A DNA stretch of 64,000 nt, taken from assembly GCF_024521635.1 (NCBI RefSeq), contig NW_026250413.1, forward strand, positions 372,001 to 436,000, written 5' to 3'. Positions 26,952 through 49,643 of the stretch are shown piece after piece; position 1 is the stretch's first letter; every line of letters begins with the position of its first letter. Both the position numbers and the translations under genes were made by a program. The notes beneath the pieces were generated by a model. That model made no database searches, had not been told where the DNA came from, and saw only the letters and a program-made list of their open reading frames with translations. Origin of the DNA: Tricharina praecox. Taxonomy: Eukaryota.

Positions 26952-27814
26952 TTTATCTTTGTGGGATTTTGTGGGTCTTTTTATTTGGGATCAAATTGCA
27001 ATGGGCTGCTGGATTGGGATGGTTGTTTTTGTACGTACCTGTATTGCGAATTTGTTGTTTGTCTGGCATGACTTGCTGTTGAATGAAGAGCTCCCATAAT
27101 ATTCATCCTGCACGTGAAATCTAAAGCTACACCTTGAGCCCATCAAGGCTATAGAATGTCTAGTTGTGGGGCGTAATCGGGCGTGAAGACGGAGAAAATC
27201 ACGATATCACTCGATCCACCAGGCTTTTCAATAGCTCGCATTTAGCCCAAAAGGGCGCTTACAGTTTCCGGCACTGTTCGAGCGCCCGGCTGGCTAGATA
27301 ACGGGCGCTCAATAGTCTAGCGCCGACGCCGCCCTGACGATCACTTCATTGCTCCCTTCTATGTATCAAACCCAGTATGTAGGCTTTTTTTGACCGATTA
27401 CCATGGTCTCTGGTCGATTACCATGGTCCATGGGCCCGCCGCCGCCCGCCGCCATTTGATGGGATTAATCCCTACGGACCGGCCGCCCTTCTGTGTTTGC
27501 TTCACAGCCTGCAGGAATTTTCGTTAATGTGTTTGTGAAAGTTGGGATGCGTGGCGTTTCTGGATAGCAGTCAGTGGTACCATACGATACCAACTTACAT
27601 AGAAAGATAGAAAGATGGGAATCAAATTTGTATAGCATCACTGTTTCTACACGACGTTGGACCGCACCAGTGATTCGGAAGTAAGAAAGCCACTTCTCAC
27701 AGTCTACAGAGCATACCTACAAGATGTGTGTACCCAAATTACGAGTGCGGCGATACGGCCGGCGTGAGCACTAGGCAATCACACCCCTGAAGTTCCCGGT
27801 GATTGTTGGTGGTC

Positions 27815-28030
27815 GCCCTGCTTCCACTCCAGCGTGTACTGGTGCCTAGTGCCTAGTGCCTTGGCGTGTGCGGGGATGTGGGGGTGCGGGGATGCGGTCT
27901 CAATCCTGGCGGCGGTCTCAGTCCTGCCCGCACCACGCCGCACTAGGCCGCCACCGTTTCTTATAAATAGCTCCTCTCTCTCCCGTCTCCTCTCCCTTCC
28001 TCTCTATCCTCTCCTCATCACATACATTTA
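27815..28030 (+). promoter_or_regulatory. Repeated promoter-like module, copy 1 (others at about 29142, 30945, 34027, 37225, 39772, 44590; truncated at about 32820)
   Basis: GCCCTGCCTTCCACCCTAGCGTGTACTGGTGCCTA, then GCGGGGATGCGG repeats, then (GCGGTCTCAATACTGGCC)n, CGCACTAGGCCGC, TATAAATAG, a CT-rich tract and CATCACATACAT. TATA-like boxes at about 27962, 29294, 31094, 34155, 37352, 39955 and 44715. Confidence 0.6.
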
Positions 28031-28561
28031 CTTTTCTTCCACACCCATCAAGCCCCCCGGGGCAATCCATTCAATCAACCCAGCGGCCACCGGTACCACA
28101 TCCAACCAGCTCAACCAGCTACCGACACTTCTCACGGCCATCGGGTTTGACCTGCGGGACATGCGGGCGTACGCCGCGGCCGCCACTACCTACGAAGACC
28201 AATGAAGACAATAATCACGATGTCGACTGGCCTCTGGTACGTGGCCCCCGATCCGATGCTGTGTTTCACACACATCGGCGGGGGGTGGGGGGGAAAGGGG
28301 GTGGGAGGGGAATCATTTCCCTTCCCTGCGAGCGGCCGCTCGCCGTCGAGTGATGGCTATAAAGCAATTAACCAACCGTTCCTGCGCCCTTTGCTGGAGG
28401 TGACGGAAGTTATCAGGTATGTAGCACCGATTAGTTACCGCCGAACACGACGAGGGATATGTAACTAATACATTGGGCTCTGTACAGACAGCAGAGCGAG
28501 GAAGCTTCGGGGCGGCAAGGTGGCACGGGTAAATCAACCCGGATGTGAGAGGGGGAGAGAG

Positions 28562-28705
28562 GACCAAAGGAGTTGGTGTTCGGTGGAAAGAATTCCTTCA
28601 GTTCTGCATTTAGTCTTTTAGATCAGCCTCCAAATTGGCGGGTATATATCTCCCATGATCTACTACTGAGGTCGAATGCAATGATGATTAAACAAAAAAA
28701 AACAA
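28562..28705 (+). terminator. Repeated 3'-end/terminator-like module, copy 1 (others at about 30215, 31868, 35190, 38465; partial at 47395 and 48895)
   Basis: GAGTTGGTGTTCGGTGGAAA...TTTTAGATCAGCCTCCAAATTGGCGGGTATATATCTGCCATGATCTACT..GGTCGAATGCAATGATGATTAAACAAAA. It contains a TATATA element and ends in an A-rich tract. The function is inferred. Confidence 0.45.
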
Positions 28706-31700
28706 TGGTACCGTCTTTCTTTGGTCGGGTATATTCTGCATGTATATACCATGAATTATCTACCTCTGTGATCAGCTACCTACTCTACCGTATCTACGTA
28801 CTCGTTCATGATTTTTGTCCATTTGTAGATGGTGACCCTGTTGAGAGAGTGTGCAGTCTGTTTCGTCCCCTTACGTTGGCCGAGTGCTGTTCGATTCTCG
28901 ATAAGAAGCTTGAATATGTGAATATTAATGACAGAGTTGTCCTGCCTTCCACCGCGTGTACTAACTGTGTAGTGAGGGGTGGAGACCGCACGGCTTGCAT
29001 CATCACTCGGGATGAAGCAAGAATGCTACATACCGTACTCCCTACAGATGCCAGAAGGCATACCAAATTTGTACCAAAATCACGGGTGCGGCGAAAGTTA
29101 CAGGCAGCGTGGGCTCAGATATGTGAATGCTAACGACAGAGCCGCCCTGCCTTCCACCCTAGCGTGTACTGGTACCTAATGCCTAGGCGTGTGCGGGGAT
29201 GTGAGGTGCGGGGATGCGGTCTCGATACTGGCCGCGGTCTCAATACTGACCGCACACGCCGCACCACGCCGCACTAGGCCGCCCACACTTTCTGATAAAT
29301 AGCTCCTCTTACTTCCCTCTCCTTCCCCTTCCTCTCTATCCTCTCCTCATCACATACATCTACTTCACTTTCACACTCAACAAACCCCTCGGGGCAATCC
29401 GTTCAATCAACCCAACAACCAGTCCCATGCGGACATAAGCTGCCGCCACCGTCGCCCAGGCCGCCGCGAACCGATGATGTGTTTCATGCACATTGGCGGA
29501 ATCATTTCGACTACGACACTATAAACCAACCGTTCCTGCGCCCTTTGCTGGCGGTAACTGTGAAGTTACCAGGTATGTAGCACCGATTAGTTACCAACAA
29601 ACACGACGAAGGATATGCATCTAATACATTGGGCTCTATACAGACAGCAGAACGAGGAAGCGTGGGGGAGGAAAGGGCTAGGGCCCTGCCAACGGATCGG
29701 AAATCTTCTTGCATCTTTACCAAAATAACATCGACCAGAAGGAGCAACAACGACGGCGAACTGTGGACATGACCCTTGGGGGGCTCGGGGAATAATCCCT
29801 TGGAGCGGGGTTCGGAGTGGGCATCTCTTGATGCCCCTTCCGTCCCATCTCCCCGCCAGATGTCGGCTCTTCTCGCGAATAGTAGCGCTGCTCGCGGTCG
29901 AGCCACGATTACGACCCTTTCGGTCAACCGCTCGTCCGCCCTTTGCTGGCGCTTCCTAGGTATGTAGCACCGCACCGACTACCACCGAACGCGATGAGGG
30001 ACATGCATCTAATACAATGGGTTTCATACAGAGAGCGGAGCATCAGGAGAAAAAAAAATTCCGTTGAGTGCGTGTAGGCGGTGCTGACTTTGGTAACGCT
30101 GGGAACGCCCTCGAGCCATTGCATAGAGTGAATGCCTAGTCATTTCCAGATATGAACGACCAATGGCCAGTCTATTTCGTGTGTGTGTGTGTTGGGGGGG
30201 GGGGGGGTGGTGGAGGACCAAGAGAGTTGGTGTTCGGTGGAAAAAATTTCTTCGGTTCTGCATTTTGTCTTTTAGATCAGCCTCCAAATTGGCGGGTATA
30301 TACCTGCCATGATCTACTAAGGTCGAATGCAATGATGATTAAACAAAACAACAATCCCTTAGATCGTCAAAAATATTTCACCGTGACGGGGGGCGAGTGG
30401 GGGACACAGGGGGTAGTCCAAACTTGGTTACTAGCAAGGGACCGCCCACCAGCCGGCTGAAGGAGGCTGGCCTGTGGTGCGGGCATAGGTGGTGCGGCGG
30501 CGGAGGCGGCGAGGGATCTCTTAGTCGGCCGCACAGTCACCTCACGATACCACTTGACATCGGCCCGACATCATAACCTACACACTAGTTGCCTCCACCC
30601 GCCTGTCTCTCCACCCCCCCGTGCCGTAGCTCAACGCGGTGGAAACAATCAAATGGATAGGGCTCTAGCCGCCTCTTGCAGTAATATGCTCTGACCAGCC
30701 CGATCAGCCCCGAAAGGTCACTACCGACTATTCGGTTGCCGATCGCGCTGTCAGACTGTCAGCCTGCAGTAGCTCTCTGACTGGGTTCATTTCGGTTTTG
30801 AGAGGCTGAGGAGTTTGAACTTTGAAGGCAAAGCGTCTGTTGTGCTGGCTAGTGGTCCGCTTTACTTGTCTATAGAAGTCCTAATGAGATATTCGTGGAT
30901 ATTATAGTTGTCCTGAAGGCTGAAGTTGCCAGTTGCCGGTGGTCGCCATGCCTTTCACTCTGACGTGTACTAGTGTTTAGTTCCTCGGCGTGTGCGGGAT
31001 GCGGAGATGCCGGGATGCCGGGATGCGGTCTCAGTACTGGCTGCGGTCTCAATACTGACCGCACCACGCCGCACTAGGCCGCCCCCGCTTTCTTATAAAT
31101 ATCTCCTCTTCTCCCGTCTCCTCTCCATTCCTCTCTCTCCTTCCCTCATCACATACATCAAGCTCAACAACAACTATCGATAAATGCCTCCGGGCAATCT
31201 GTTAAATCAACCCAACCGCCAGCCCCATGCGGGCATAAGCCGCCGCCGCCGTCGCCCCGGCCGCGAACCGATGATGTGTTTCACGCACATCGGCGGAATC
31301 ATTTCGACTACGATACTATCAACCAATCGCTCCTGCGCCCTTTGCTGGCGGTAACTGTGAAGTTACCAGGTATGTAGCACCGACTATGTAACTACCACCG
31401 AGCGAGACGAGGGACATGCATCTAATTTAATCGGCTCCGTATAGACAGCGGAATGAGGAAGTGTCGGCGAGGCAAGGGCTAGGGCCCTGCCAACGGATCG
31501 GAGATCTTTCTCCATCTGTACCAAAATAACATTGACCAGAAAGAGCAATAAGTGGGGTGACTTGGGGGTGTTTGACCCTGGGGGGCGAGGGGTGGGGGCG
31601 GGGGAATAATCCCTTGAGCGGGGTTCGGAGTGAGCATCTTTTGTTGCCCCCCGTGGCCAGCAATCAACCGCTCGTCCGGCCTTTGCGGGCGGTAACCAGG

Positions 31701-32940
31701 TATGTAGCACCGGCTACCACCGAACGCGATGAGAGACATGAATCTAATACATTGGGTCCCATACAGATAGCGGAAGGAGGAAACGTCGGAGAGGCAAGGG
31801 AAAGGCGAAGGTGATGACCTTGTGTGGAGTCTGGAGACGGCGCAGGCATGAGAAAATGATTCCTTGAGTTCTGCGTTTGGTCTTTTAGATCAGCCTCCAA
31901 ATTGGCGGGTATATATCTGCCATGATCTACTAGGTCGAATGCAATGATGATTAAACAAAACAAAAACAATGGTACCGTCTTTCTTTAGTCGGAGTCTGTT
32001 CTGCGTGTATATACCATAAATTCTCTGCCTCTGATCAGCTGCCTACCCTAACGTACCTGTTTTCTGTACTCGTTCATGATTCTTATTTGTTTGTAGATGG
32101 TGACCCTGCTGAGAGAGTACATATATTGTCTGTTGATGGTCGCTTCCAGACTTCCAGTGCCCGTGTGGTGACTGCGCACTCCGCATCATAACTATGTAAG
32201 CCTCTTGGTAGTAGCCCATGGACTTTGTGACCATTCCAGTGGAAGACCGGGTAGTGTGGTGCTTCCGCTTTATCCAGGAGAGTATTGCCGTCTCCACTGA
32301 GTCCTGACCGATCCGATTAGCCCCAGAAGGTCACGGTTCACCTTTCGTTTGCCGATCGCACTGCCAGCCTCGCCTGGTTTCCTTTCGGAAGGCTGAAGGG
32401 TTGGAAGGCGAAGCGTCTGTACCGGCTGTTGGGCTGGGCTGTGGCCGGCTATACTTATAGCCTAGTAGTCCCGACTCCAGCGATGGGCAATGCGGCATCC
32501 CTAGATATCATGGTTGTCGTGACTCCCGCCGTTATCGGAGGTTGTCCTGGCTTCCGCTGTCGCCGTACCAACCACCTCGAGCTCGACGTAACTTACGTTC
32601 CGTCTGGTGGGTCCATCTGCCTACAAATAGTCTGCGATTCGCCACCGTATACATAGAACCCGCTTAGGTACCTGCCCTGCCACAGCACTGAGCGCTCTTG
32701 GCTACATATCTAAGTACCTGTGTCTGGTGCAGTGTCACGCCGATGGGGACATATGTTTTGTCCCCTTCCGTTACATACCAGAGTGCTTTTATATTCTTGG
32801 TAAGAATTCTAATGATAGGGTCGCCCTGTCTTCCACCACGGTGTGTAGTTCTTGGGCGTGAGCGGGGCTGCGAGTAATCTTAGATTCACTAATCGGTCGG
32901 ATACCTAGAGGAAGCGGATGGGCCTCGGGCGAGTACCCAA

Positions 32941-33576
32941 AGGGTCCTCAAAATTCTGGAATGGCGGTTGGTTGGACTTTAGCGTCATTCCGGTAGTGCA
33001 AAAAATGGAACCAATCAAAAGGCTCATAACCAGCGTTCAATTTGAGGGACCGGTTGGGCGACTGGTTGAGAGATAGTTGGATGGAATGATCATTCTGGAC
33101 GTCCGCCCTTACAGACAACATTCCACACGCATTCAGACAATAGTTACCCCCAATACAAATATTTACTCAGAATAAGGTGAGAAAATGCGCAGATTTACCA
33201 GGTTGTTGTAATCTATCACGAATGACAGATAGATCTTTTGCGAAAGGGTCTGTATCATCGTTACGGTCGAAAATTAAGTTTATAATTTGTAATCCTCATA
33301 CATTTGTGTTGATCGTTTGAAGCCTGTATTTTTTTCCGTGATCCATGGGGCATAATGTCGGAGGGGCATGATGTCGGAGGTTTGATAGTATCCGAAGTAC
33401 AAAAGTTTCTCAAGTTACCGTAGCAACGAGTGTTCGAGCACTTCATTCCTGGCCTATCCCTATAACGGCACAAGAGGTTACGTCAGCCAATCACACTGCT
33501 TTTGCACCACACCTCCGTCCCCGTTTAGGCACGCTAAAGTGCCACCAATTGCCCTTCCGCGAATTTCGAGGACCCT
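32941..33576. mobile_element. Non-autonomous TIR element (MITE-like), about 636 bp
   Basis: Left end AGGGTCCTCAAAATTCTGGAATGGCGGTTGGTTGGACTTTAGCGT versus reverse complement of the right end AGGGTCCTCGAAATTCGCGGAAGGGCAATTGGTGGCACTTTAGCGT. The TSD is unclear. Confidence 0.7.
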
Positions 33577-34419
33577 CATACTACATACTCCGTCGACCTG
33601 TGTGATTATCTGCCCTTCAGGCAGGAAGGATCGCTCTCCTCGCACACTGGCGGAGGTTATGTTTCAGTCTTGCAGGTATGCATAGGCTTTTTTTGTGGCC
33701 GATTACCTTGGGCGCCTTTTTGCGGTCGATCACCATGGGGCCATTGCTGTGTTTGGGAAAGCTGGTATCGTTTCTAGACAGCAGTGGTATCATACATAGG
33801 CATGAAAATTTGTATGGAATCACACTCTCTACACGACGTTGGACCGCACCAGTGATTCACTCTATGTGGGCATGGCGTCGTGACTCGGGATGAAGCAAGA
33901 AAGCTACATACCGTACTCCCTACAGATTCCGGAATGCATACCTTATTTGTGCCAAAATCACGAGTGCGGCGATACTTGTTACAAGCAGCGTGGGCTCGGA
34001 TATGTGATTACATACTAACGACAGAGTTGCCTTGCCTTCCACCCTAGCGTGTACTGGTGCCTATATATTTCCTCGGCGTGCGCGGGGATGCAGCGATGCG
34101 GGGATGCGGGCTCAACACCGCCCGCACTAGGCCGCACCTAGCCCGCCATTTCCACATAAATAGCTCCTCTCTCTCCTCTCTCTCTCTTTCTCTCCCCATC
34201 ACATACATCATCCTCAACATCAACACTCGATAAAACCCGCTTTCAAATCAAAGGCTCATCTCTCCCCTCTTCACTCTTTCTCCTCACCTCACCACCAACC
34301 CTCGACAAACCCCTTGGTGGGTCGTCTTACGCCGCCACCAGGAATGTGGTACCGCTCGGGCGGAATTATTTCCCCCCAGTAGTAGGGTGCCGGTGGCGGC
34401 GGTGGCGGCTAACCGCTGC

Positions 34420-34615
34420 CTTCATATTCGAGGCTCGGTATCGATTGATGATTCAACGGGCGTGGGAAGGCGACAAACCGTTCGGAATGGTGCTTCCCAA
34501 CTTCGTTAGCAACGCAGCAGGAGACGCGAGATCAAGAAGTGGGGTTACCGGGATGATTACCTCGTCGAACGAGTCGACGATTTCCCTCTTGCCAACGAGG
34601 AAGCATTCGAACAGT
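34420..34615 (+). pseudogene. Captured fragment of a LON substrate-binding-domain gene (LONRF-type RING/LON protein), copy in unit 4
   Basis: FIFEARYRLMIQRAWEGDKPFGMVLPN, then after a deletion IKKWGYRDDYL..VERVDDFPLANEEAFE. This matches the family pattern LHIFEPRYRLMIRR...FGMV...GY..GK.ER.DD. Confidence 0.8.
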
Positions 34616-34641
34616 CATGCCTAGGAATTTCCCAGGGACAT

Positions 34642-34885
34642 CCGTGACGTTGGCGAGATCACTGAGCTCTCCGGATGCGACTACCTCTCCATCTCCCCCA
34701 ACCTCCTCGAGGAGCTCTTCAACAGTACGTCGACAACGAGGCTGAGTTCCGCTTCGACCTCAATGAGGACCAGATGGCCACCGAGAAGCTTAGCCAGGGT
34801 ATCCGTGGTTTCGCTGGTGAGTGATCTCTCTGCCCCTCCTCACACGTACACTACTAACACTTACCCAGCCGACGCCATCACCCTC
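34642..34885 (+). pseudogene. TAL1: Captured C-terminal fragment of transaldolase including an intron (34817-34868)
   Basis: RDVGEITELSGCDYLSISPNLLEELFNS / YVDNEAEFRFDLNEDQMATEKLSQGIRGFA-[GTGAGT..CTAAC..CAG]-ADAITL, the classic eukaryotic transaldolase C-terminal sequence. Confidence 0.92.
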
Positions 34886-35858
34886 CGAACCCCCTCCCCC
34901 CCCCCCCCCCCCCCCCCCCCCGCCCGGCGACTAGCCGGGCATGGCACAAATCGTGCCATTGGGCGGAATTATTTTCCCCCGGGGGCGGAGGCGGCCGAGA
35001 TCATTGATGGTCCGTTCCTCCGCCCTTTGCTAGCGGTGACAGGTTACCAGGTATGTAGCACTGATCAACTACCACCAAAGGGGACGAGGGATGGAAATGT
35101 ATCTAATACGTTGGGCTCCATACAGACAGCGAAACGCGGAAGCGTCGGGGTGGCAAGGGTAAATCATGGGTGTGAGAGGGTGGGAGGAGGACCAAAAGAG
35201 TTGGTGTTCGGTGGAAAAAATTCCTTCAATTCTGTGTTCTTTTAGATCAGTCTACAAGTTGGCGGATATATACTCATGTAATCCGCCATGATCTACTATG
35301 GCCGAATGCAATGATGATAAAACAAACACAAAAAAAGGTACCGCCTCTCTTTGGTCGGGTTCTGCATTTATATACCATAAATTCTCCGCCTCTGTGATTA
35401 CATTAGAGTTGCCTATCAGCGGAAGTAGTAGTTGCGGCGGGAGAGTGAAGCAGTTACGGCGGAAGAAGGAGCTATATGAGCGATGAGCATCAGCGAGAGT
35501 AGCAATTGCGGCGGGAGGGGGAACAGCAGTTGCATCGGCAGTAGCAGTAGTAGTTGCGGCGAGAATAGTAGATGTGGTGAAGAAGCATGAGTACAGAATT
35601 GAGGCCCATTGGTAGAGGTGGAGGTATGAGGAGAAGAGACGAGACTTGACAACTGCAACTTTAAAGCGATATTCAACAGATGCTATTCTTATCCGGGCGG
35701 GCGTGAAACTACAGCTTCATCGCTGTCTCTGTTCCAGACGATGGCAGCTAGTGCCACAGATCCTCCATCCCATCGTTTGCCTGGTTAGATCTGGTTGACA
35801 GACCATTGACAAACGTTTGGGTTGCTGAAACGTGACGACAACTGTGGAAAAATGCTAA

Positions 35859-36449
35859 GGCCCAATTTGGTTCGCAGCTGCAGTTTAGAAATGTGCATTT
35901 TGGCGAGTTGAAGGTTGCCCAAGCTGCAGTTCCAAACTCTCAACTTCCCTGATGACCGTTCGGCAACCCAGATGTTCGACAGCACCACCCTTTTTTCTCT
36001 GACTTCGGGGCTAGTTACGCCAGAAAACCATAACTACATAAATAGCTTTTTACAGCGGCGACGTGGCCCTTCCTGTCACTTAGGGAATTTCCCCTCATAT
36101 CTCACAACAGCGGCTCCTCCTCTGCGCCGTACCAGCAAGTAACCCCTCCTATCCACAGTCGCAGCGGAGGAACCATAGGAGGTGGCCGGTGTCGGACATC
36201 TTACATAGGCGTAATGAAGGGGGACTATGGCTGGGTCGACTACAGGGCGATGCTGGCATGTACTACTGGTGATTGTCCATAGAGTTTATTTGTACTTACT
36301 GTGGCTCAGTCGACAATCTGCAGTTTCTCGAGTTGTCAACTTGGGGTGGTGTGTCAAACAGGCACCCATTCGGGGAAGTTGACGGTTCGAAACTGCAGCT
36401 CACTTTTTGTGTGGTAGATTCAAACTGCAGCTGCGAACCAAACTGGGCC
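35859..36449. mobile_element. PIF/Harbinger (Tourist-like) MITE, about 591 bp, nested in a larger insertion (about 35400-36570)
   Basis: TIR GGCCCAATTTGGTTCGCAGCTGCAGTTT versus GGCCCAGTTTGGTTCGCAGCTGCAGTTT (27/28 match), flanked by TAA and TTA. Confidence 0.8.
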
Positions 36450-37670
36450 TTAGATGCAACAGTTGCGCAATAGTTGCGCAATACCGCGGGGCCGCTTGTG
36501 AAATCTAATGATCGCGCAATCATTTTCTTACACACCGCTCACGTTTAAAAACCCCCCCTTTTTTTACAAGGGTACCTACTATACCGTATCTACCGTACTC
36601 GTTCATGATTTTGTGTGTAGACGGTGACCCTGCTGAGAGGGTGTGCAGCGAAGTCCGTTTCACCCCCTTCTGTTGCCCGAGTGCTTTTCGATTCTCTATA
36701 AGAAACTTGAATATGTGAATATTAATGAGAGAGTTGCCCTGCCTTCCACCCCGACGTGTACCTACTATAGTGGGGGGGGAGACCGCACTATTTCATAGAA
36801 CATCACTCGGAGCTTATGGTGTCTGTCGTCCGCGGAATCCGGATGGGAGTATCACACGTACCATTCCGTTGGCCTGTGTTATTATCTCAGATGCCTTTCA
36901 GCCGGAAAGGATCGCTCTTCTGAGTCTTCATACAGCGGAGGAGGTTGCGTTTCGGTCTTGTATGCATAGGCTCTTTTTGTGGTCGATTACTATGGGCCCG
37001 CCGCCCTTCGATGTGTTTAATCCCTATCATCTACGGACCTTCTGTGTAAGATGGGAAGATGGGAATGAATTCTTGTATGTAGGAAGTATGTATGGCATCA
37101 CATTTTCTTCACGATGTTGGACCACACCAGCGACTCACTTTACGTATGGCGTCGGGACTCGGGATGAAGTCGAAATCGATAGTGATAGGCAGCGTGAGCT
37201 CGGATGTGATTACTCACGATAGAGTCGCCCTTCGCGCCACCCTAGCGTGTACCGGTGCCTATGCACTTCTTCAGCGTGTGCGGGGATGCGGGATGCGGGG
37301 ATGCGGGCTAAACCCGCCCGCACTAGGCCGCACTAGGCCGCCCCACTTTTTTATAAATAGCTCCTCTCTCTCCTCTCTTCTCCCTTCATCTCTCTCCTCT
37401 CCTCATCAAATACATCATCCTCAACATCAACACTCGATAAAACCCGCTTTCAAATCAAAGGCTCCTCTCTCTCCCATTTTCACTCTTTCTCCCTCACCTC
37501 ACCACCAACCCTCGACAAACCCCTTGGTGGGTCGTCTTACGCCGCCACCAGGAATATGGTACCGCTCGGGTGGAATTATTTCCACCCGAGTAGTAGGGTG
37601 CCGGTGGCGGCGTTGGCGGCAGATAACCGCTGCTCTGCCCTTTGCTGGCGGTCACTAGGTATGTAGCACC

Positions 37671-37998
37671 ACACCGACGACCATGCTTTTCATATTCGAG
37701 GCTCGGTATCGATTGCTGATTCAACAGTTCGGAATGGTGCTTCCAAACTTCGTTAGCAACGGGGTAGGAGACGCGGAGGGGACTCCATTCATGGAGTATG
37801 GAACGATGCTGCAGATCGAATCCATATAAGTTTATGCGGACGGTCGCAGCCATATCTGGACGGTCGGCGTGTCCAAATTCAAGATCAAGAAGTGGGGTTA
37901 CCGGGATGATTACCTCATCGCTAAAGTCGAACGAGTCGACGATTTCCCTCTTGCCAACGAGGAAGCATTCGAACAGTCATGCCTAGGAATTTCCCAGG
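37671..37998 (+). pseudogene. Captured LON substrate-binding-domain fragment, copy in unit 5
   Basis: TPTTMLFIFEARYRLLIQ..FGMVLPN...PFMEYGTMLQIESI..ADGRSHIWTVGVSKFKIKKWGYRDDYLIAKVERVDDFPLANEEAFE, with frame disruptions. Confidence 0.85.
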
Positions 37999-38001
37999 GA
38001 C

Positions 38002-38427: not shown

Positions 38428-38461
<34 letters not shown>

Positions 38462-40529: not shown

Positions 40530-41160
40530 TTGTCCGCCCCATGGGCCATGGGACAGGGACCCACACCGCAGCAGACGCCACAGAACGTGGTACAACGGCT
40601 CGGTGGTCCGTCACCTTCCCCGGCCTCGGTCCTAGTGCAGAACAGAGCACCTCAGCCGATGGCGAACGACTTGATACGGACTGCTCAGCAGTACGAGAAC
40701 CAACAGGCGGCGGCGGGGTCCCTTGTCAACGGTGGCGTGGAAGTGTTTCCCGTATTGAATCGGGCCCCGACCGCCACGTTCACCCCTGCGCAGCAGTGCC
40801 AGTTGGAACAGCAACGGCGCCATGCTATGTTACAGAACGAGCGGATGGGCCAAGCCTGTGCGCACGCGAGCAAGTTCCCGCCGAACGGCTCGCCGCCTCA
40901 GCCCCCGCTTGCGGCTCTCAACCGACCGATACCACGCCCCAACCCGCGGTGCCGCGTTCCCACCACCGACAACGCAGCCGGGTGGCGCCACAGCACAGCA
41001 ACCGGCAGCTCAGCGGCAATTTGTCAGCCTGACCCCGGAAACGCTAAGAAATTTCCCTCCGCATGTAGTTGAGAAGATCAGACGTCTCCCCCCCGGAGCA
41101 GTTGAGGAATTTCTTGGATAAGTTTGAGCGTCACCAAGCGCAACAGAGGTAGCAACAACC
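40530..41160 (+). pseudogene. Unidentified Q/P-rich coding fragment inserted in unit 6
   Basis: Open 180-codon frame (MGQGPTPQQTPQNVVQRLGGPSPSPAS...) followed by a frameshifted continuation (FVSLTPETLRNFPPHVVEKIRRLPPGAVEEFL). It is unique in the window and bounded by cassette repeats. Confidence 0.5.
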
Positions 41161-41470
41161 TGCTTTGCCAGTCGTTGGCCAAGAACATGGTTAGTACTCT
41201 ACCCGGTAATCCTGCGGGATTTCTATGCGCTTCTAGTTTGTTCGAGTATGCTAACATGATGATGAGAGTCGACACGCCGATAGAGACTAGGATAAAGAAT
41301 ATCCTCAAGGCTCTAATGAAGTTGAAAGACGAGGAGACGATGCAGGGTCAATACGGTGAGCGTGTAGACGCCTTCGCCGAATCCGCCGAGGAGAAGAAAC
41401 GATTCTTCCATCCTCGGCGGATTCTCCGAGGAGTAGGAGAAGAAGCACATCGACTCTCGGATCAAGATCC

Positions 41471-41790
41471 ACGGGTAATAATGCGCTGGGAAATACCACT
41501 CCAATGGAGGTGGACACACCCGTCACTGGTTCATGTATGCCTTTCGCTACCCTTAATTCTTATTTATCCGCAAGAACTGACTGATATCACTAGCCATCAA
41601 CCAAGCTAATCCGGAGATGCTTGCGGATGACAACCACGGCGAATACTTACAAGCTGCCGATCAACAATTTCAACGCCGGCTACTTGCTCAAGACCATCTA
41701 CCAGCGCATCATCAATTTTGAACGACAAGGGCCAAGGCCCCAACAAACAATGGCTCAGGAATTGGTCGATTGCACCACTACCCACCCACC
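41471..41790 (+). pseudogene. Unidentified intron-containing coding fragment in unit 6
   Basis: RVIMRWEIPLQWRWTHPSLVH-[GTATGC 41535..CTGAC..TAG 41593]-PSTKLIRRCLRMTTTANTYKLPINNFNAGYLLKTIYQRIINFERQ reads through in frame. Confidence 0.55.
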
Positions 41791-42129
41791 TAGAAGCATC
41801 GATGCGCCGCGGCGCACGATACCTTCGTTAGATTCTCCGTTCGGAGCACTACCAGCACCTCAGGGCCAGATTGGTTGCCGCCCTTTGCTGGCGGCAACTC
41901 GATAGGGACGCAGCATCCCCGCTGCCCCGCAGAATAAGTACGAGTCAGCGACTGTCTTTTGGGCCATGTGGGCTGGCGTTGCGTCCCCTCGCCAGACTGC
42001 CAGGCTGCTGTGGCTCTCCCATAATTTGGGGAGCTCGAGGCGAGCTGCGGACCGTGGTCCGTGGTTCGGAGGAGAAGCAGCAGCACATATGTGCTGTCTG
42101 TCGTCCGATTCCCGTCTTCCTTGATATTT

Positions 42130-42500
42130 TCTTTCCGTTTTTGCTTTCTGTTTTTGCTTTCTGTCTTTGCTTTTCTGTTATTGCTTTCTGTTTTTGCTTT
42201 CTGTTTTTGTTTTCTGTTTTTGCTGCGTGTTTCTGTTCCTGTTTCTGTTCATCTGTTTTTGTTTTCTGTTTTTGTTTTCTGTTGTTTCTGTCTTCGTGTC
42301 TATCGGGTTGAGTGGAGAGGGTTTAGTTGAAAGGTTCTGGCAGAGAGGGTCTGGCGGGGAGAGTTGGGTGGAGAGTGTCGAGCGGACGGTTGAGAAGGCC
42401 AGCGACAAGATGACTGACAAGTCGGTTGAGAAGGCGGTTCACCGGGATGTCGAGCGGGCGGTTGAGCGGGAGATTAAGCGGAGAGTTTTGGTGGAGGAAG
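42130..42500. repeat. (TTTTGCTTTCTG)n minisatellite followed by 12-bp period GTTGAGCGGGCG repeats; also at about 45835-45980 and 46975-47300
   Basis: Seen directly; part of the 3' region of units 6 and 7. Confidence 0.85.
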
Positions 42501-42918
42501 ATAACTAGTACTGTACCCACTTGTATTGCTTTTTCCGTCAAAATAGGAACCTATCTCGCCCACTTTGGCTGCCCTGGCTGAACAGACAGTTCTGCCAGTT
42601 TTCCCGGGAACAACTGCCAGACATATCCAAACTACCTGGGAACTGACAGCCTCTGTTCCCAACTGAACCGGGAATAAAATCAACCAGAACTGAACTGTTT
42701 AAACCAGTGTTTCCATTTCAACCGACTAACTGTTGGAGGGTGATAGATTCTCTGCCCCTGGGATCAGCTACTTACCTAATCTACCGTATCTATGAGGTAG
42801 GTACTCGTTCATGATTTTTGTTTGTTCGTAGATGGTGACCCTGTTGAGAGAGTGTGCTGTCTAGACAGTTGGTGGCCGCTTCCAGTGCCCGTGCGGTGAC
42901 TGCACAGTTGGCATCATA

Positions 42919-44068
42919 TCCCCTACGTGTCCGGCGTTTGTAAATTTGTTGCACCGCACTAAGTTGGAGAGAGAGAGAGAGATCTTCCTGTTTTATTTCA
43001 CATGCAGCCCATCTAGACTAGGTATGACGAACCCACGAACTCCGTTTCCTGCCCGCCCTGGCCAGTCGAGGTGAAATCCCCGATACCGACCAGTCCGATA
43101 CGGCTCCCCACTTCCCCTGCCCATCTGCCTCGGGCAGACACAAGCAAAAGCAAAAAGTTCATTGACAGTAAAGACCGGTATGGGCCTGCATGCCCGCTCC
43201 TCCTGCTGCCCCTCGCCTCTCTCCCCCGTCTTTCGCTTCCGCTCCACACAACTTATCACCGTGTGTCCTCCTCTCCGACTTCCTCGCATCGGCCGCAGAC
43301 GCAGTACCCTGCTGGGCACTCTTGCTCTGCCCCCAATGCGATGCTCGCCTCCTCCTCATCCTCCTCCTCCCGATCTGGTGGATCTTTTCTCCCCACATCC
43401 GTCGTTCCTAGAAACTCTAGGATTGCCTCGCTGCACCGCTGCAGCGCTCGTCGGCGAACAACTCTGCTATCGAATACCTCTCTTTTCTTCTCTCCGTCTC
43501 CTTCCTAACCTTTGGCGCACTAAGTTGGCCCAATTTGGACCGATGCAGAAAGGTTGGCAACGAGTGATATCAAAAGCATTCGGCGAGTGGACTCTTCCGT
43601 AGAGCAACTTGTGTAAGTTAGTAGAAACAGGCTCTCTACCATTATGTATCTAGCGACATACATTCTCACTTCGCTCCTCCCGAAGCTTTTCCAACTATGA
43701 CAGTGTAGTAGTACCAGTAGAGTCCGTCGCCGGTGTAGTAGTATCCGCCGGTGGCCCGTCTGCAACATGACTGCCTATGTTTGACTCGAGTCTCAGCCCA
43801 ATAACCTCTGTATCAGCGCTGCTGCTCATTTCTTTGGTATTGGCACCGAGGATGTTTGAACTAGCGGTGGTCAGACTGCAGAGGCGGCGACAGCGACAGT
43901 CATGGTACCTAGCAACCGTAACTGGTAGCAATCGTGACTGTACCAGCACAGCTGCAACCAGACTGATCGAAACAGTGAGCTGTGTAGTCGTGTAGACGCA
44001 CTGCCGCCTCCTAATCGGGCATACTTTGTAGTGCAACAAATTTACACACGCCCCGGACATGTAGGGAA
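42919..44068. mobile_element. Non-autonomous Tc1/mariner-type element, 1150 bp, TA target-site duplication
   Basis: TA|TCCCCTACGTGTCCGGCGTTTGTAAATTTGTTGCAC ... GTGCAACAAATTTACACACGCCCCGGACATGTAGGGAA|TA. Removing it restores GCATCATA-GGCCTCTTGG, as in the uninterrupted linker copies at about 32183 and 38811. No transposase is recognised inside. Confidence 0.88.
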
Positions 44069-45050
44069 TAGGCCTCTTGGTAGTAGTTACATCACCCATC
44101 TAAATTTTGTCACTTTTGACCATTCCAGTGGGAGCCGTTTTACCATTTCTCTGCACATCCGTTCGCTCCAGATTCCGTCCGAAACCCGTCCGAAACCCGC
44201 CTGTGTATATTCATATCTAGTCCTGGGGGGCCTGGGGCCTTTAGCCCTTGCCCGAGTATTTGCTTTGTGCTCTTCGTTCATGAAGGCTGTGCAGTCCGGT
44301 GCTTCCGCTTCCGCTTTATCTAGATCTAGATCTAGTATCGCCGTCCTGTGACTGGGCCGATTAGCGCACCATTCGCGTGCCGATCACGCTAACAGCCTAT
44401 CAGCCCCCAGCAGCTCCCTGCCCGGGTTCCTTCCGGAAGGCTGAGGAGTGTGAACTTTGATAGCGAAGCGTCTGCTAGGCTAGCCAGTGGCCGGCTTTAC
44501 TTAGTATAATAGTCCTAATGAGGTAGGTATTCCTAGATATTATAATCTATGGTTGTCCTGGAGGCTGAAGTTGCCGGTTGCTGGTAGACGCCCTGCCTTC
44601 CACCCTAGGGTGTACTGGTGCCTAGTTGCTCGGCGTGTGCGGGGATGCGGAGGATGCGGGCTTAACCCCGTCCGCACCAGGCCGCACCAGGCCGCACCTA
44701 GCCCGCCATTTTCTTATAAATAGCTCCTCTCTCTGCCCTCCCCTCTCTCTCTTTCTCTATCCTCATCATCAACATCAACACCTGACAATCCCCTTGACGG
44801 GCATCCACCTCATATGCGCAGCCGCGCTGCGTTAATCGAGCAGGGGCACCACGTTGCCCTTTGCTAATCATTCGCCAAGAACATGGCATGCACTCTAACT
44901 ACCCGGTAATCGTGTGAAATGTCTATGCGCTTCTATAGACCTAGTTAGAGTATGCTAATATGATGATATGATGCAGGGTCTACACGGTGAGCGTGTAGCT
45001 GCCGTCCAAATCCTCGCGGAATCCGCCGAGGAGGAGGAGAAGAAGCGCAT

Positions 45051-45447
45051 TGCCGGCTCGCTTTTCTCTCTTGCAACTGGCAAATCCCTTCTCTACCAGG
45101 CGGCAACTTCCTACTTCCTCCAGTCCTTCGTAACCCAGACCATTTCGTTGAAGTTGCAAAACTACTTCTACCACCGTCTGATGGCGATAATTCCGGATCC
45201 AACCCATGGCGAAAAGCCGACTACGTTCCAGGGCATCAACAATGACCGGATGTCTATCGACATTGAGATGAATTTTGAGGCAGTAGGACCATCAGCACTC
45301 ACGATCGAGGACACGGCGAACTCCTCGCACGCGGGGGGCTACACAGCCACCATCCCCTTCGACCCAGTGACAGGCGACACCATCACGCCCTCACCCGAGG
45401 TGACGACCGATCCCCTGGAGCTCGAAACCGACAGCGAAGCCTCGCGG
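45051..45447 (+). pseudogene. Unidentified coding fragment inserted in unit 7, in frame with the cassette exon
   Basis: Stop-free stretch of about 130 codons (AGSLFSLATGKSLLYQAATSYFLQSF...DPLELETDSEAS) between two copies of the MMQGLHGERV..EEEKKR repeat. Confidence 0.55.
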
Positions 45448-45643
45448 TGCTTTGCCAGTCGTTGGCCAACAATATGGTTAGTACTCTACCCAGTAATCGT
45501 GCGAGATTTCTATGCAGTTCTAGTTTGTTCGAGTATGCTAACATGATGATGATATGATGCAGGGTCTACACGGTGAGCGTGTAGCTGCCATCCAAATCCT
45601 CGCGGAATCCGCCGAGGAGGAAGAGAAGAAACGATTCTTCCAT

Positions 45644-45704
45644 ACGGCGCGACATGAAATATGGAACCTTCAGGACTGGAATGCAGGCCACGCCTGTCAA
45701 TGGA
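45644..45704 (+). pseudogene. Probable short glycoside hydrolase family 16 fragment
   Basis: RRDMKYGTFRTGMQATPVNG resembles the fungal GH16 segment D(I/M)xYG(S/T)FRxxMxxTxVNGT that precedes the catalytic ExDxE motif. It is only about 20 codons long. Confidence 0.45.
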
Positions 45705-45979
45705 AAGTTTGGGGAGCTCGACGGTCTGGCGCTGGCGAGCGGGACCGAGGCGAGCCGCGGACCGTGGTCCGCGGCTCGGTGGAGGAGCAGCAGCACTGAT
45801 GTGCTGTCTGTCGTCCGATTCCCGTCTTCCTTGCTATTTTTCTTTCTGTTTTTGCTTTCCGTTTTTGCTTTCCGTTTTTGCTTTCTGTTTTGCTTTCTGT
45901 TTTTGCTTTCTGTTTATGCTTTCTGTTTTTGTTTTTGTCTGTCGGGTTGAGTGGATGAGTGGAAGAGGGTTGAGCGGCG

Positions 45980-46350
45980 AGGCATGGTTGCGGGTGGGTG
46001 GAAACTATCCGCAAGACTATCCTGACGCGAAAGTCCGGCAGTTCTTCAGAGGCGTAAGTTGGCTCTAATCTTCCCGCTCCAAACGCCCTGCAAGTTGCAG
46101 CTACTGACAATCGATACAGTGCGGTACGAACACAAAAACAGCCTGAAGGTTGTCAACGAGAAGAATGGAAATTCCGCCACGGCTACTTCCCGAGAGAGAG
46201 TCTACTCCCAGCCACTATCGAGTTTGACGCCAAGGATTCTGTTCTTACGGCCTAGACGACAGCCATGAAGATGATCGACGGTTTCGCATTGAGAGACAAG
46301 TCCGCGCTGGGTCGACTCGGATGCTCTACCTTACCAGAGCTTGGGCCGTT
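45980..46350 (+). pseudogene. Unidentified intron-containing fragment in unit 7
   Basis: Unique sequence with GTAAGT(46054)..CTGAC..CAG(46119), lying between two copies of the GCGAGCGGGACCGAGGCGAGCCG repeat. Confidence 0.45.
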
Positions 46351-46439
46351 TAGCGAGCGGGACCGAGGCGAGCCGCGGACCGTGGTCCGTGTTCCGTGGT
46401 CCGGTGGCAACGCAGCAGCTCATATGTGCTGTCTGTCTT

Positions 46440-46842
46440 CAAAGGCGCAAGATGGCGCCGAGCACTGTCGCCCGACATCGACGTACCGATTGAGCGTCTT
46501 TACGCTCCCTCCCGCGAACGTCTTGTTCCGTTGTCACGAGTTATCTCGTGCACAGCATTACGACCATCTTCCAGAGCGGGACTCGACCAACTACGCAGCG
46601 TTTACACGCCTGGACTGCATACGAGCACGCAGAATGAAGGCGAAGATTATTGCTGGGCGTCCGATTGATCCTGCCGTGTGGGATGAGCGTGCTCTCGGTC
46701 TCGCTCAATTCACTGAAGACGAGCGAGCGGGAGTATTCGGCACAATCTATTGGATAGTCCTATTTTCATAGGAAATGTGGTCCTGGCCCTTGGATGACTG
46801 GTGCGTTCCCGGGCCAGGCTGGCAGTTTGGTAGACCGTCGAG
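46440..46842 (+). pseudogene. Unidentified coding fragment in unit 7
   Basis: Protein-like frame ...RARRMKAKIIAGRPIDPAVWDERALGLAQFTEDERAGVFGTIYWIVLFS*EMWSWPLDDWCVPGPG with a single stop, bounded by cassette repeats. Confidence 0.45.
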
Positions 46843-47620
46843 ATGGCTCTCCCAAAGTTCGAGGAGCTCGACGGTCTGGCCGCTGGCGAGCGGGACCGAA
46901 GCGAGCCGTGGTCCGTGGTCCGGGTTCGGTGGAGGAGCAGCAGCACTTATGTGCTGTCTATCGTTCGGTGGTGTTCTTGCTTTCTTTCCATTTCTTACAT
47001 TCGGTTTTTGCTTTCTGTTTTTGCTGCGTGTTTCTGTTCCTGTTTCTGTTCATCTGTTTTTGCTTTCTGTTTTTGCTTTCTGTTTTTGCTTTCCATTTCT
47101 GCTTTTCTGTCTATCGGGTTGAGTGGAGAGGGTTTAGTTGAAAGGTTCTGGCGGAGAGGGTCTGGTGGGGAGGGTTAGGTGGAGAGTGTTGAGCGGGCGG
47201 TTGAGAAGGCCAGCGACAAGACGATTGACAAGGCGGTTGAGATGGAGTTTGAGCGGGTGGTTGAGCGGGTGGTTGAGCGGAGTGTTTCGGTGGAGGAGGA
47301 TTGACTCGCGGGGACTCGGGGAGGGCTGGACGGAGAGCGGCCAGCGGCCAGTGGTCGGAGACAGCCGGGTGGAAAAGGATATCTACTTATATAATCTGCC
47401 ATGATCTACTACATACATAAGGTCGAATGCAATGATAATTAAACAACAAAAACAAAACAAAAAGTGTGTCGTTGGCAAAACGTTCCGTTGTTCAGGAGAA
47501 TGCTTGGAGGATGCACGAATACCACGAGCGAGGGAGTGGATTTCTGACATGGCTGGGCTTGGTTGAGCTTGGTTACAGGAGGTGGACCGGACGGGACGAC
47601 AACTGGACTATGATAACTAA

Positions 47621-48048
47621 GGACCCGTTTGGATGACCTCAGTTTTAGCGAAAACTGTCAGTTTTTCGAGAAACTGAGCAAATGGAACTGAGACCCCGTT
47701 TGGATAGCACAAAAACCTTAAAAAAAACTGAAACTGTGCGGCTCCAGCGACGAAACTGGTACTGACCTCGAGAGGTCATTTCTTTGCCGCTACTCAGTAT
47801 CGCATTTTAACTTCACGATGGACTCCCTTTACGGGGAAGAGAAAAAAGCGGGGCCACAATGTGTCCACTATTAAAGTTCTGGTGAAGCCTATTATTCAGA
47901 CTTATGGCTGAGTAATCTGAGAACTGCCAAACACTCTGTTCATCTCAGTTCTCCGGAAACTGAAACTGGACAGAATTTGGTGTCCCGTCGGGGAACTGAA
48001 TTTCGCTCTAAAACTGGAAGTGAAAACTGAGGCCATCCAAACGGGCTC
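47621..48048. mobile_element. PIF/Harbinger (Tourist-like) MITE, 428 bp, TAA target-site duplication
   Basis: TAA|GGACCCGTTTGGATGACCTCAGTTTT ... AAAACTGAGGCCATCCAAACGGGCTC|TAA (23/26 TIR match), with subterminal AAACTG repeats. Confidence 0.92.
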
Positions 48049-48698
48049 TAAGTAGTAATGAGTACCTTCATTCATTTCCTCTTTCCTTCTTGCTTCTTCC
48101 TTTAACCTACCATGATCTAGATAATATGTCCGATTAATTCACACGACCGAACAGCTCGGAGGCGGAGTGATATGTTGTGATACTTGTCGACTGCCTACCT
48201 ACGTCAGCACGGTAGTAGTGTCGCTCGCATGGGTATGTAGTTTGAGTCCCGACAGGCCACCCACTGAAAGAATCCTGCGGGAAGACCGATTGGAGCACCT
48301 ACTCTAGTCAAGTGCGCAGATCCGGAGCGTGATCTGGCAGCGAGATATGGGCACGTAACCACAGTGAGTCAACCCAGGAAACTGACTGGACATAGGTATT
48401 CCCGAGTCAAACGGACTCAATGGACTCAATCACAATTATTGACTCGAGATGGGGCGGAGTCGATCGCGGTAATTGACTAAATATCCCCCGGGGTCAATCG
48501 GACTCAATCACAATTGCCGATTCGTACTCGCGGCTGTGTCAGTATCTATTCGGCGCCGTTTTGACTTGACCGAATAGCATGGGCGGAAGGCAGGGAAAGC
48601 CACATCGGGCCGCTCAGTGAAAGCTGGGTTGGACAGTGGCGTGGAAACGTGGGGGGGCGAACGGGGTGATATTGCCATGATCCAGATCTCCCTATCTA

Positions 48699-48878
48699 CT
48701 CGTTCATAAGACACAACCGCTCAACATTCCGAAAGAGCTTGCCAAGTGGCAATGGAAGTCCATTAACCACTTTCGTCGCCATTTAGGTACAGCCCTCTGT
48801 CGCCGCGCTCGTGCCACCCGTTCCCACCCACTAGGCAAGCTCATTCAGAATGTTTAGTAGTTGGATCTTATGAACGAG
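48699..48878. mobile_element. Small TA-flanked MITE-like element, 180 bp
   Basis: TA|CTCGTTCATAAGACACAAC ... GTTGGATCTTATGAACGAG|TA: a 13-bp perfect TIR (17/19 extended). Confidence 0.7.
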
Positions 48879-49643
48879 TAGATACGGTACCTGCCTAGGT
48901 CGCATGCAATTACTGATTAAACAAAAACCAAAATTGACCGAACAGCACTCAGATTATTACCTCTTGGGCAGGTACTTCACGACCTATCTCCCATCGCAGC
49001 AGTACATCATAGCAGACACTCACCAACTCGCCAACACACTCGCCAACCCACCAACACACCATCATGCTCACTCGATACAGCACACTCGATACAGGAGACT
49101 CGGAAAAGGGTTATGTATCATACACACTACATACAACAATCCTCCTCCCCTATCCCACCTCCTCCATCCCACTTCCTCTATCCCCACCGCCACACGCAAA
49201 ACGCAAAACACAAAACGATGCCCGGCAGATCCAAGAACGCACAAGGCACTTGTGCTTGTGCCTGTGCTTGTAATAATATATGCTACTACTATCTTTCCAA
49301 TCCAATCCAATCCAATCCAATTCCATTCCACAATCCAATCCACAATCCAATCCAATCCAATCCAATCTGTATTCCGCATATCATGAACAAATAACCGGAA
49401 CAAACCCCACGAAACCCATAAACTCCTCTTTCAAAAAAAAAAAAAAAAACCACGGACATCAAACACCCCCCGAAAAGCGACAAAGCAAAAAATGAATAAC
49501 GGAAAGCACAAGTATATGCATCGAAGCGGAAACGGAACGGAACAGACTTGAGCTTGAGACACAAACATCGAACGCTTGACTAATGATGAACAATGAACAT
49601 AATAAACAACGAAATCCTACAACTGAACCCCGTCTCCTCTACT

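Follow-up and report, generated by a model that had tools for sequence, protein, structure and literature searches.

A tandem array of promoter-intron-tail units carrying fragments of other genes in Tricharina praecox

We analysed a 64,000-nucleotide stretch of Tricharina praecox DNA (assembly GCF_024521635.1, contig NW_026250413.1, positions 372,001 to 436,000 of the forward strand; hereafter the window) and describe in it an array of seven same-strand units, each with a promoter-like head and most with an intron-bearing core and a tail, whose interiors carry pieces of other genes. At least eight donor genes are represented between the constant modules, within 20 kb; transaldolase, a LON-domain protein, aspartate aminotransferase and a conserved fungal family are the cargo supported by homology. 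The explanation that we favour, and to which we give an even chance, is that a tandemly amplified, strongly transcribed small unit would act as a sink for DNA-level templated insertions of other genes.

Architecture of the array and its constant modules

An earlier sequence-only reading of this DNA had proposed a self dot-plot. Self-comparison of the entire 64 kb by blastn placed practically all repeated DNA within 27.4-47.5 kb; the repeats are direct and 65-97% identical, and inverted matches are almost absent. The seven same-orientation units claimed by that reading were thereby recovered at the following positions:

27375..47457, plus strand, whole array of seven same-strand units (self-blastn and module map)
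27375-28996, plus strand, u1 (this and the following units from the module map)
28997-30726, plus strand, u2
30727-33588, plus strand, u3, spacer included
33589-36864, plus strand, u4
36865-39257, plus strand, u5
39258-44367, plus strand, u6
44368-47457, plus strand, u7

The simplest unit is u1, which consists of an upstream spacer, promoter, start-like motif, small hairpin, core block, short second exon, tail and downstream spacer. The self-comparison showed that the inter-unit spacers are homologous as well (28777-29010 vs. 36573-36810 at 81%, 33590-33742 vs. 39258-39406 at 77%, and 30727-31161 vs. 44368-44778 at 72%). The repeat is thus an entire 1.3-3.3-kb segment that reaches beyond the gene-like part, which points to local tandem duplication. 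The units have evolved as mosaics: promoters cluster as u4/u5/u7 (90-95%), and tails as u2/u5 (99%) and u1/u3 (96%). As the module trees are mutually discordant, we conclude that recombination or gene conversion took place among units. Repeat-induced point mutation (RIP) was rejected for the array (TpA/ApT 0.82, (CpA+TpG)/(ApC+GpT) 1.12).

Motif counts were judged against 100 dinucleotide-preserving shuffles, and they agreed with the promoter-like head, the repeated exon/intron core, the five start-like motifs and the terminator-like tail of most units that had been claimed from the letters. The TATA head TAAATAKCTCCTCT has seven matches, a number reached in 0 of 100 shuffles; its 14-mer is identical in six of seven units, and each head stands between GCGGTCTCA-type repeats on its 5′ side and a CT-rich leader on its 3′ side. 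The start-like ATGCGGGCATACGC and its variants gave five matches, one with AAG for ATG (0/100 shuffles reach 5), and a stop follows three codons on in u2 and u3 and 14 codons on in u1. Eight matches were obtained for the pattern of core exon and 5′ splice site and six for the tail 20-mer, neither of which occurs in any of the 100 shuffles; u6 is without the tail motif. The positions of these modules are as follows:

27964..27977, plus strand, TATA head TAAATAGCTCCTCT of u1; the others at 29296, 31096, 34157, 37354, 39957 and 44717
28161..28174, plus strand, start-like ATGCGGGCRTAMGC; the others at 29427, 31227 and 40076, with the AAG form, unit-internal, at 38143
28382..28545, plus strand, core block of u1: exon of ~30 nt, intron 28417-28487, exon of ~45 nt
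29573-29643, 29960-30031, 31370-31444, 31700-31766, 35051-35125 and 38290-38361, plus strand, other core introns, making seven complete in all
38455..38605, plus strand, tail module of hairpin, UAUAUA, GAATGCAATGATGATTAAAC and an A-rich run of variable length (motif count, module map)
28551-28705, 30205-30348, 31859-31968, 35179-35335 and 47388-47457, plus strand, other tails (90-99% identity among copies)
48891-48933, degenerate tail copy (module map)
42030..42510, plus strand, alternative 3′ modules T2a/T2b/T2c of u6 and u7, u6 copy (repeat listing, module map)
45746-45820, 46364-46440 and 46897-46967, plus strand, further copies of T2a, with two palindromes (module map, folding)
45820-45936 and 46972-47110, plus strand, further copies of T2b, a 13-nt minisatellite TTTTTGCTTTCTG (repeat listing)
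47108-47301, plus strand, further copy of T2c, a 12-nt-periodic stretch (repeat listing, module map)

The seven complete core introns are 67-75 nt long and are accompanied by one hybrid intron. The core block is sharply bounded, with flanking sequence that cannot be aligned between copies, and a 13-nt run AGGTATGTAGCAC at the 5′ splice site is invariant in all eight copies, a length that 63 of 20000 column permutations attain. Units differ in reading frame through 12-, 19-, 21- and 23-nt length variants ahead of this splice site. Identity among copies amounts to 90-99% for tails, 77-95% for promoters and 77-88% for cores: the processing signals are preserved far better than their surroundings, and the cargo is decaying. 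The tail, with its hairpin, UAUAUA and A-rich run, we take to be a polyadenylation region, going by yeast-type 3′-end signals.

Several further observations concern these modules. The two T2a palindromes, CGGACC..GGTCCG and CAGCACATATGTGCTG, are perfect (42040-42100; also at 45750, 46375 and 46900); T2a occurs three times in u7, and a foreign fragment follows each of the first two copies. Homopolymer C or G runs of up to ~33 and (GT)n tracts (34890-34925, 38428-38460, 30195-30210) are placed at the border of second exon and tail or directly past the transaldolase fragment, and are possible slippage products and fragile sites. A 198-bp palindromic element at 48690-48887 has 60-nt arms that are 85% complementary and resemble the downstream spacer of the array; it is directly followed by the degenerate tail. 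We rejected a conserved small protein encoded in the constant exons: FDYDTINQPFLRPLLAVT is open in u2 and u3, yet it is startless and homologue-free, with unit-specific frames, and the constant-exon open reading frame (ORF) at 29299-29577 found no homologue (13 candidates, none at E ≤ 1). Because the tail contains AUGAUGA, a C/D small nucleolar RNA (snoRNA) was considered and likewise rejected: neither a D box nor a terminal stem recurs consistently, and the A-run varies in length. Rfam returned nothing at gathering score in the window and nothing credible up to E 5 in 27300-49000, and a snoRNA host gene is not indicated, given no Rfam match and core introns of just 67-75 nt.

Gene fragments between the modules

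Domain and homology matches to several donors support the claim that the array holds fragments of different host genes. Both pieces that the sequence-only reading had named, transaldolase and a LON domain, were confirmed; aspartate aminotransferase, present in four fragments, and several more donors had been missed. The fragments are these:

37728..38009, plus strand, LON substrate-binding-domain fragment of u5 with one in-frame TAA; shorter copy at 34421-34644 in u4
34640..34880, plus strand, transaldolase C-terminal fragment of u4, with its own intron 34817-34868
38010-38132, plus strand, second transaldolase copy, u5, whose internal deletion differs from the u4 copy
40100..40550, plus strand, aspartate aminotransferase fragment a of u6, with its own intron 40371-40434
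41161-41480, 44800-45047 and 45448-45643, plus strand, aspartate aminotransferase copies b, c and d (self-comparison, module map)
40551..41160, plus strand, Q-rich piece of an unnamed gene, flanked by aminotransferase copies a and b
41480..41865, plus strand, unnamed-gene fragment, identified by reading only, with an intron at ~41535-41593 predicted from splice signals
~41866-41895, plus strand, intron-less core-exon remnant, right after the preceding fragment
45048..45447, plus strand, fragment of a conserved fungal (membrane-protein) family of unknown function, 133 codons open, between aminotransferase c and d
45955..46353, plus strand, unnamed-gene fragment with predicted intron 46054-46119, between two T2a copies
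46440..46850, plus strand, weak PHD/FYVE-like zinc-finger fragment (PF15446, E 1.7e-4, below the curated cut-off), between two T2a copies
30040-30195 and 30380-30620, no strand assigned, two u2 pieces of unknown origin, single-copy in the window

The LON domain was recognised as PF02190 with E 3.8e-10 (40.5 bits vs. a cut-off of 28.7, the single stop read as X). For transaldolase all 21 of 21 PDB matches agreed, with a best E of 1.6e-6. The aminotransferase gave a best E of 0.0029 (yeast 1yaa), and 46 of its 52 matches were aspartate aminotransferases, the other six being vanillyl-alcohol oxidase at E 0.093. Ten proteins matched the conserved fungal family at E ≤ 0.001, among them P0017 (79%), P0006 (66-69%), P0007 from Sphaerosporella brunnea and P0008 (563 aa); relatives of 301-563 aa are included and full-length homologues exist, and Pfam names none of the three family members tested (P0006, P0008, P0017). 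The u5 transaldolase ORF found nothing among longer proteins (979 candidates, none at E ≤ 0.001) nor in PDB, and the 65-aa LON ORF found no match in PDB. The Q-rich fragment gave no Pfam match; like the pieces at 41480-41865 and 45955-46353, it was recognised solely through reading frames, splice signals or longer contigs in the sequencing runs described below. No Pfam match was found for the two u2 pieces, nor any Rfam match in a scan of 30030-30740. In a Pfam search at E ≤ 0.01, 6 of 150 plus-strand and 1 of 149 minus-strand ORFs gave matches, all below curated cut-offs and none to a transposon or Helitron protein. The cargo is decayed, the LON fragment containing a stop and the aminotransferase and transaldolase fragments being frameshifted or truncated.

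Every fragment with a readable direction lies in sense orientation to its unit, which applies to eight donors (five read by homology, three by splice signals or open frames). Donor introns survive in five fragments, i.e., transaldolase, aminotransferase, LON (part of one) and two unnamed ones, the latter by splice-signal prediction only. In u5, a hybrid intron (37659..37727, plus strand) opens with the initial 25 nt of the core intron and continues with the 3′ portion of the LON-gene intron. Because five fragments keep introns and one intron is hybrid, we consider that the copying was from DNA or from unspliced RNA. Inserts are flanked by duplicated constant segments, namely G-core on both sides in u5 and the core on both sides in u2 and u3; likewise, aminotransferase copies flank different inserts in u6 and u7, and in u7 three T2a copies flank two successive inserts. 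At the transaldolase-to-leader junction of u5, the only one with both parents in the window, the switch falls within CTCAAYGA, common to both parents. Aminotransferase copy b also contains a foldback inverted duplication with a 20-bp hairpin (41379..41424, plus strand, seen as a minus-strand self-match), which folds at -48.2 kcal/mol (z -7.0), with 0 of 200 shuffles folding as well. Three features of template switching are thus present, i.e., microhomology at one junction, duplication of recipient sequence in four kinds, and a foldback.

Some observations on single fragments may be added. A sub-threshold eIF_4EBP match on the minus strand (41013-41198, E 1.3e-4, 22.3 bits vs. a cut-off of 24) lies opposite the Q-rich fragment; it is the sole hint of an antisense fragment and was treated as chance. 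The u2 pieces (30040-30620) match many contigs in all four sequencing runs described below, 5-16 of them in the run X1 having common differences from the window. For the piece at 30380-30620 these X1 contigs number 9-16, with a depth of up to 2822 in the run X4, and the piece may come from a sequence that is present in many copies or expressed very highly. P0005, a T. praecox hypothetical protein of 260 aa, is a spliced model over u7 (44971-46255) that strings together a piece of aminotransferase pseudogene, part of a different gene, T2a and one more fragment, the one at 45955..46353, which supplies its last exons; it is probably not a real protein. Homology of the core block to an exon-intron-exon piece of the aminotransferase was rejected, as only the 10-mer GCCCTTTGCT is common to both and local-alignment z ranges from -1.4 to 2.9.

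Contig evidence and the origin of the chimeras

Contigs of four runs were aligned to 27500-47499 at 85% likeness: X1 and X2, which are soil metagenome DNA, and X3 and X4, which are small. Such contigs reveal neither expression level, strand nor transcript ends. Junctions of promoter and cargo, cargo and module, and module and transposon are bridged by contigs in X1 (0-2 differences) and X2 (1-9 differences), for example over 39912-40628, 41588-42184, 44037-44989, 46078-46584, 46573-47041 and 35228-36080, which argues against local assembly error; X1 is possibly not independent of the assembly, and the number of units is spanned by no single record. The core intron at 31700-31766 is skipped with GT..AG ends in one contig each of X3 and X4, a skip absent from X1 and X2. 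A further X3 contig passes from a core 5′ splice site (29572) straight into the LON exon at 37728, again with GT..AG ends. A contig of ~592 nt in X3 and X4 runs through LON, uninterrupted transaldolase, the leader motif and the core up to the 5′ splice site at ~94% identity, and relative to it the u4 and u5 copies each have a different deletion. This unit belongs either to the same genome, as a paralogue, or to a relative, as an orthologue; X3 and X4 carry window-identical contigs as well. Metagenome contigs were scanned for the core pattern and for the tail motif, with 0 loci in either case.

Records of 1.2-2.2 kb in X3 and X4 extend past the LON, Q-rich and membrane-family fragments, and other contigs there match the transaldolase and aminotransferase fragments with spliced sequence, in each case at 85-93% identity; we take all of them to be transcripts of the donor genes. 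Contigs of 1191 nt cover the Q-rich piece over 40551-41154 with 61 differences and continue at both ends, and those of ~2.2 kb cover the membrane-family fragment with 28 differences. X3 and X4 contigs also cross the aminotransferase intron in uninterrupted coding sequence (read by eye), and at a loose end in the transaldolase fragment the exon sequence continues at 34816. The fragment at 41480..41865 has identical low-depth contigs in X1, X3 and X4.

The idea of a fragment-accumulating, re-transcribed locus, already raised from the letters, fits these data. For its origin we infer a repair pathway acting at fragile sites, with selection on orientation and no dedicated function of the array. 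The ancestral unit, of ~750 bp, would have had a TATA promoter, a CT-rich leader, one 67-75-nt intron and a hairpin/UAUAUA/A-rich 3′ end, without a conserved reading frame, and unequal crossing-over together with gene conversion would have multiplied unit and spacer into seven diverged copies. Where a unit breaks or a fork stalls in it, to which palindromes, G/C homopolymers, minisatellites and heavy transcription probably contribute, repair would proceed by template switching to other loci, so that 60-600 bp of genomic DNA, introns included, are copied before the return to the array. A return upstream of the exit point would leave the constant segment duplicated on either side of the insert, and unequal crossing-over could then spread and reshuffle the products. 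Antisense inserts are probably purged by selection, as strong antisense of housekeeping genes would be harmful. The output would be a spliced, mostly non-coding chimeric sense RNA.

Several points weigh against this explanation. Undirected break repair does not predict that all eight readable donors are in sense orientation, and it is for this bias that selection had to be invoked. Microhomology could be checked at one junction alone. Different inserts of u6 and u7 have an identical right-hand junction, at the start of aminotransferase b and d, which suggests a preferred joining site and not random breaks. That X3 and X4 are RNA is a guess of the tool, supported by the GT..AG skips, and none of the six runs is recorded as RNA. 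Finally, in about 30 contigs of X1 and about 24 of X2 a 42-nt tail block (30306-30347) is set in sequence unlike the window to its left and right; together with the 94% unit outside the window, these other contexts indicate that the module family occurs elsewhere or in other organisms, for which a purely local history gives no explanation.

The last point would suit a mobile element. Maize Helitrons carry gene-fragment cargo in one orientation, keep introns and yield chimeric spliced RNA, and the array has multi-gene cargo of one orientation, with introns kept, that is spliced into chimeric RNA. Gene capture by fungal Helitrons is described in what was available of PMC4289320. The units might therefore be a non-autonomous mobile element, Helitron-like or undescribed, that captures gene fragments and formed the array by tandem insertion or rolling-circle read-through. 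We regard this as unlikely, although it is the best placed of the alternatives. Rep/helicase, transposase, reverse transcriptase and integrase were each absent from 299 ORFs of at least 45 aa on both strands of 27000-49500 at E ≤ 0.01, and the inverted-repeat scan found no terminal inverted repeats (TIRs) or asymmetric TIRs enclosing units or fragments, as had been noted from the sequence for Rep/helicase, transposase and enclosing TIRs. In two of six tails the hairpin is followed by CTAG 8-12 nt on, but the next base is G, not T; the position reads CTAAG, CTGAG or CTATG in three other tails, the tail at 47388-47457 being different. CTAG does not mark an end, because the similarity of dispersed copies runs ~25 nt past it, to 30347-30351. 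For these reasons, a canonical Helitron1 was rejected. The termini reported for Pezizomycotina Helitrons (TCAG hairpin...ATTTT; TGCCT...CTCCTGT), as far as the accessible part of PMC5148889 gives them, were not noticed at module borders on inspection by eye, without a systematic scan. Since neither the 25 longest of 73 inverted-repeat pairs nor the 1.15-kb TIR element described below encloses a unit or a fragment, the array does not belong with Pack-MULE/Pack-TIR elements. In comparison with derivatives of long terminal repeat (LTR) elements, i.e., terminal-repeat retrotransposons in miniature (TRIM) and large retrotransposon derivatives (LARD), the TATA head and tail are separated by 0.7-3 kb that holds cargo, which does not resemble a single LTR. 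With spacers that are homologous, fitting tandem duplication and not independent insertions, and with no element termini definable, the earlier suggestion of a mobile non-autonomous element family was not borne out.

Chimeras could also have formed at the RNA level, with a reverse transcriptase switching between the unit transcript and unspliced pre-mRNAs and the complementary DNA recombining back into the array. All readable fragments being sense, the one microhomology junction and the A-rich 3′ end of the unit would agree with such an origin, as would the presence of donors as contigs in the small, probably RNA, runs, which would mean that they are expressed. However, five fragments retain introns, the unit intron is present in every copy and one hybrid is joined inside two introns; the promoters and untranscribed spacers are duplicated too, and no reverse transcriptase was found in the array. 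We consider this origin improbable.

We have equally little confidence that the array is a dedicated acquisition system, in which strongly transcribed trap units would capture parts of transcribed host genes at favoured joining sites and the spliced chimeras would be purposeful. The joining sites might then be, e.g., the exon end with CYTTTGC ahead of each intron and the palindromic T2a, a proposal just as doubtful. It is similarly a long shot that the intron-bearing linker copies separate the pieces in a repeat-spacer architecture. A use of the chimeras as templates of RNA-dependent RNA polymerase, for control of donors by small RNA, or as a pool for exon shuffling is no less speculative.

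Still less probable is a reading of the units as functional protein-coding genes that exon shuffling produced. There is a public spliced model across u7, the 260-aa P0005, some chimeras stay open over 184-216 codons, and promoter, splice and tail signals are conserved. Yet the LON fragment contains a stop, the aminotransferase and transaldolase are frameshifted or truncated, the core frame varies by unit and the constant-exon ORF is homologue-free (none of 13 candidates at E ≤ 1). P0005 and its relatives share only the donor-derived middle (4 proteins, of which the other 3 match the donor part). An assembly artefact, for which the repetitive sequence and homopolymer runs of ~33 nt might speak, is very improbable, as short-read contigs of X1 and X2 bridge the chimeric junctions with the few differences given above.

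As regards the setting, the window reads as a filamentous-ascomycete chromosome arm, with ~54% G+C and short introns of the GTATGT...CTAAY...YAG type. A HAM1-like gene ends near 27000, before the array, and ordinary genes lie on either side (an HSF-type factor, phosphofructokinase, a Rad51-like protein, RRM and R3H proteins), with a minus-strand gene at 49644-53117; the domain search of window proteins took in 24 of the 53 ORFs of at least 180 aa and showed no Rep/helicase among them, and no transfer RNAs were found. Besides homopolymer G/C, the 25 longest of 73 inverted-repeat pairs contained only two miniature inverted-repeat transposable elements (MITEs) and the 198-bp palindromic element. 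The transposons in and next to the array are:

42921..44068, no strand assigned, non-autonomous TIR transposon of 1.15 kb with ~34-nt TIRs, inserted in the u6 spacer (found by eye, checked)
35855-36453 (u4 spacer) and 47616-48053 (just past the last tail), MITE-like elements with 31-32-nt TIRs adjoining TAA/TTA

The element at 42921-44068 has no ORF match, and as it matches up to 29 X1 contigs, we conclude that it is a repeat family.

Relation to described systems and meaning

Fungal introner-like elements consist of one short intron sequence that recurs in unrelated host genes, with conservation confined to the intron. A repeated short intron is found here as well; in contrast, the conserved block includes flanking exon (~30 nt upstream, ~45 nt downstream) and is restricted to one array, and an introner-like element was rejected on the grounds of this flanking exon.

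In the available part of a report on Drosophila, tinkering loci are described in which gene fragments are gathered by DNA-level ectopic recombination and re-transcribed (Weisman, bioRxiv 10.64898/2026.08.09.743762). As far as that part goes, the two systems are alike in being kilobase-scale loci of duplicated gene fragments from elsewhere that are re-transcribed into composite transcripts and gene models, in keeping parental non-coding flanks, which indicates a DNA-level origin and not retrotransposition, and in having transposons in the locus. At least eight donors in 20 kb, and chimeric X3/X4 contigs with introns removed, whose RNA nature is guessed, are what a tinkering locus would show. 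In the array, unlike the loci described there, the host is a fungus and the receiving locus is a tandem array of a promoter-intron-tail unit; the fragment borders fall at the array's own modules and not at transposons; and the readable fragments are all sense, with inserts flanked by duplicated constant segments. We therefore regard the Drosophila tinkering locus as the closest described system, and see as much reason for as against the view that the array is its fungal counterpart.

With Helitrons (PMC4289320) and Pack-MULE/CACTA elements (PMC1947982), judged from the portions of these papers at hand, the array shares unrelated, intron-bearing fragments of one orientation and chimeric, non-coding RNAs; it differs in having homologous spacers and neither Rep/Hel, transposase, defined termini, TIRs nor a target-site pattern. 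Breaks in yeast receive templated insertions of ~10-1000 bp from distant loci, with donors near R-loops and tandem repeats (PMC12214859; PMC11724301), according to the sections of both papers that could be consulted. Junction microhomology and foldback inverted duplications are common to these insertions and the array, as, probably, are pieces from distant loci, whereas the yeast cases in those sections happened singly, in mutants or where a break had been induced, and those of the array are many, accumulated, amplified and biased in orientation. In the literature on gene capture by fungal Helitrons, on gene-fragment arrays and chimeric transcripts, and on Pezizomycetes pseudogenes, we found no fungal equivalent and no receiving locus that is a tandem promoter-intron-tail array with sense-only cargo.

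For annotators, our reading would be a warning to treat the hypothetical proteins at the array as mosaics of pseudogene pieces. If it is true, such chimeric gene models would become explicable, one unit being already annotated as a hypothetical protein. Gene fragments in Tricharina praecox would then pile up in one transcribed, self-duplicating locus and not in random scatter, and the array would be a compact natural archive of template-switch repair, recording its junctions, orientation and choice of donor. As the array is without a RIP signature, the Pezizomycetes would be a setting in which such repeats survive, and the concept of the tinkering locus would reach the fungi.

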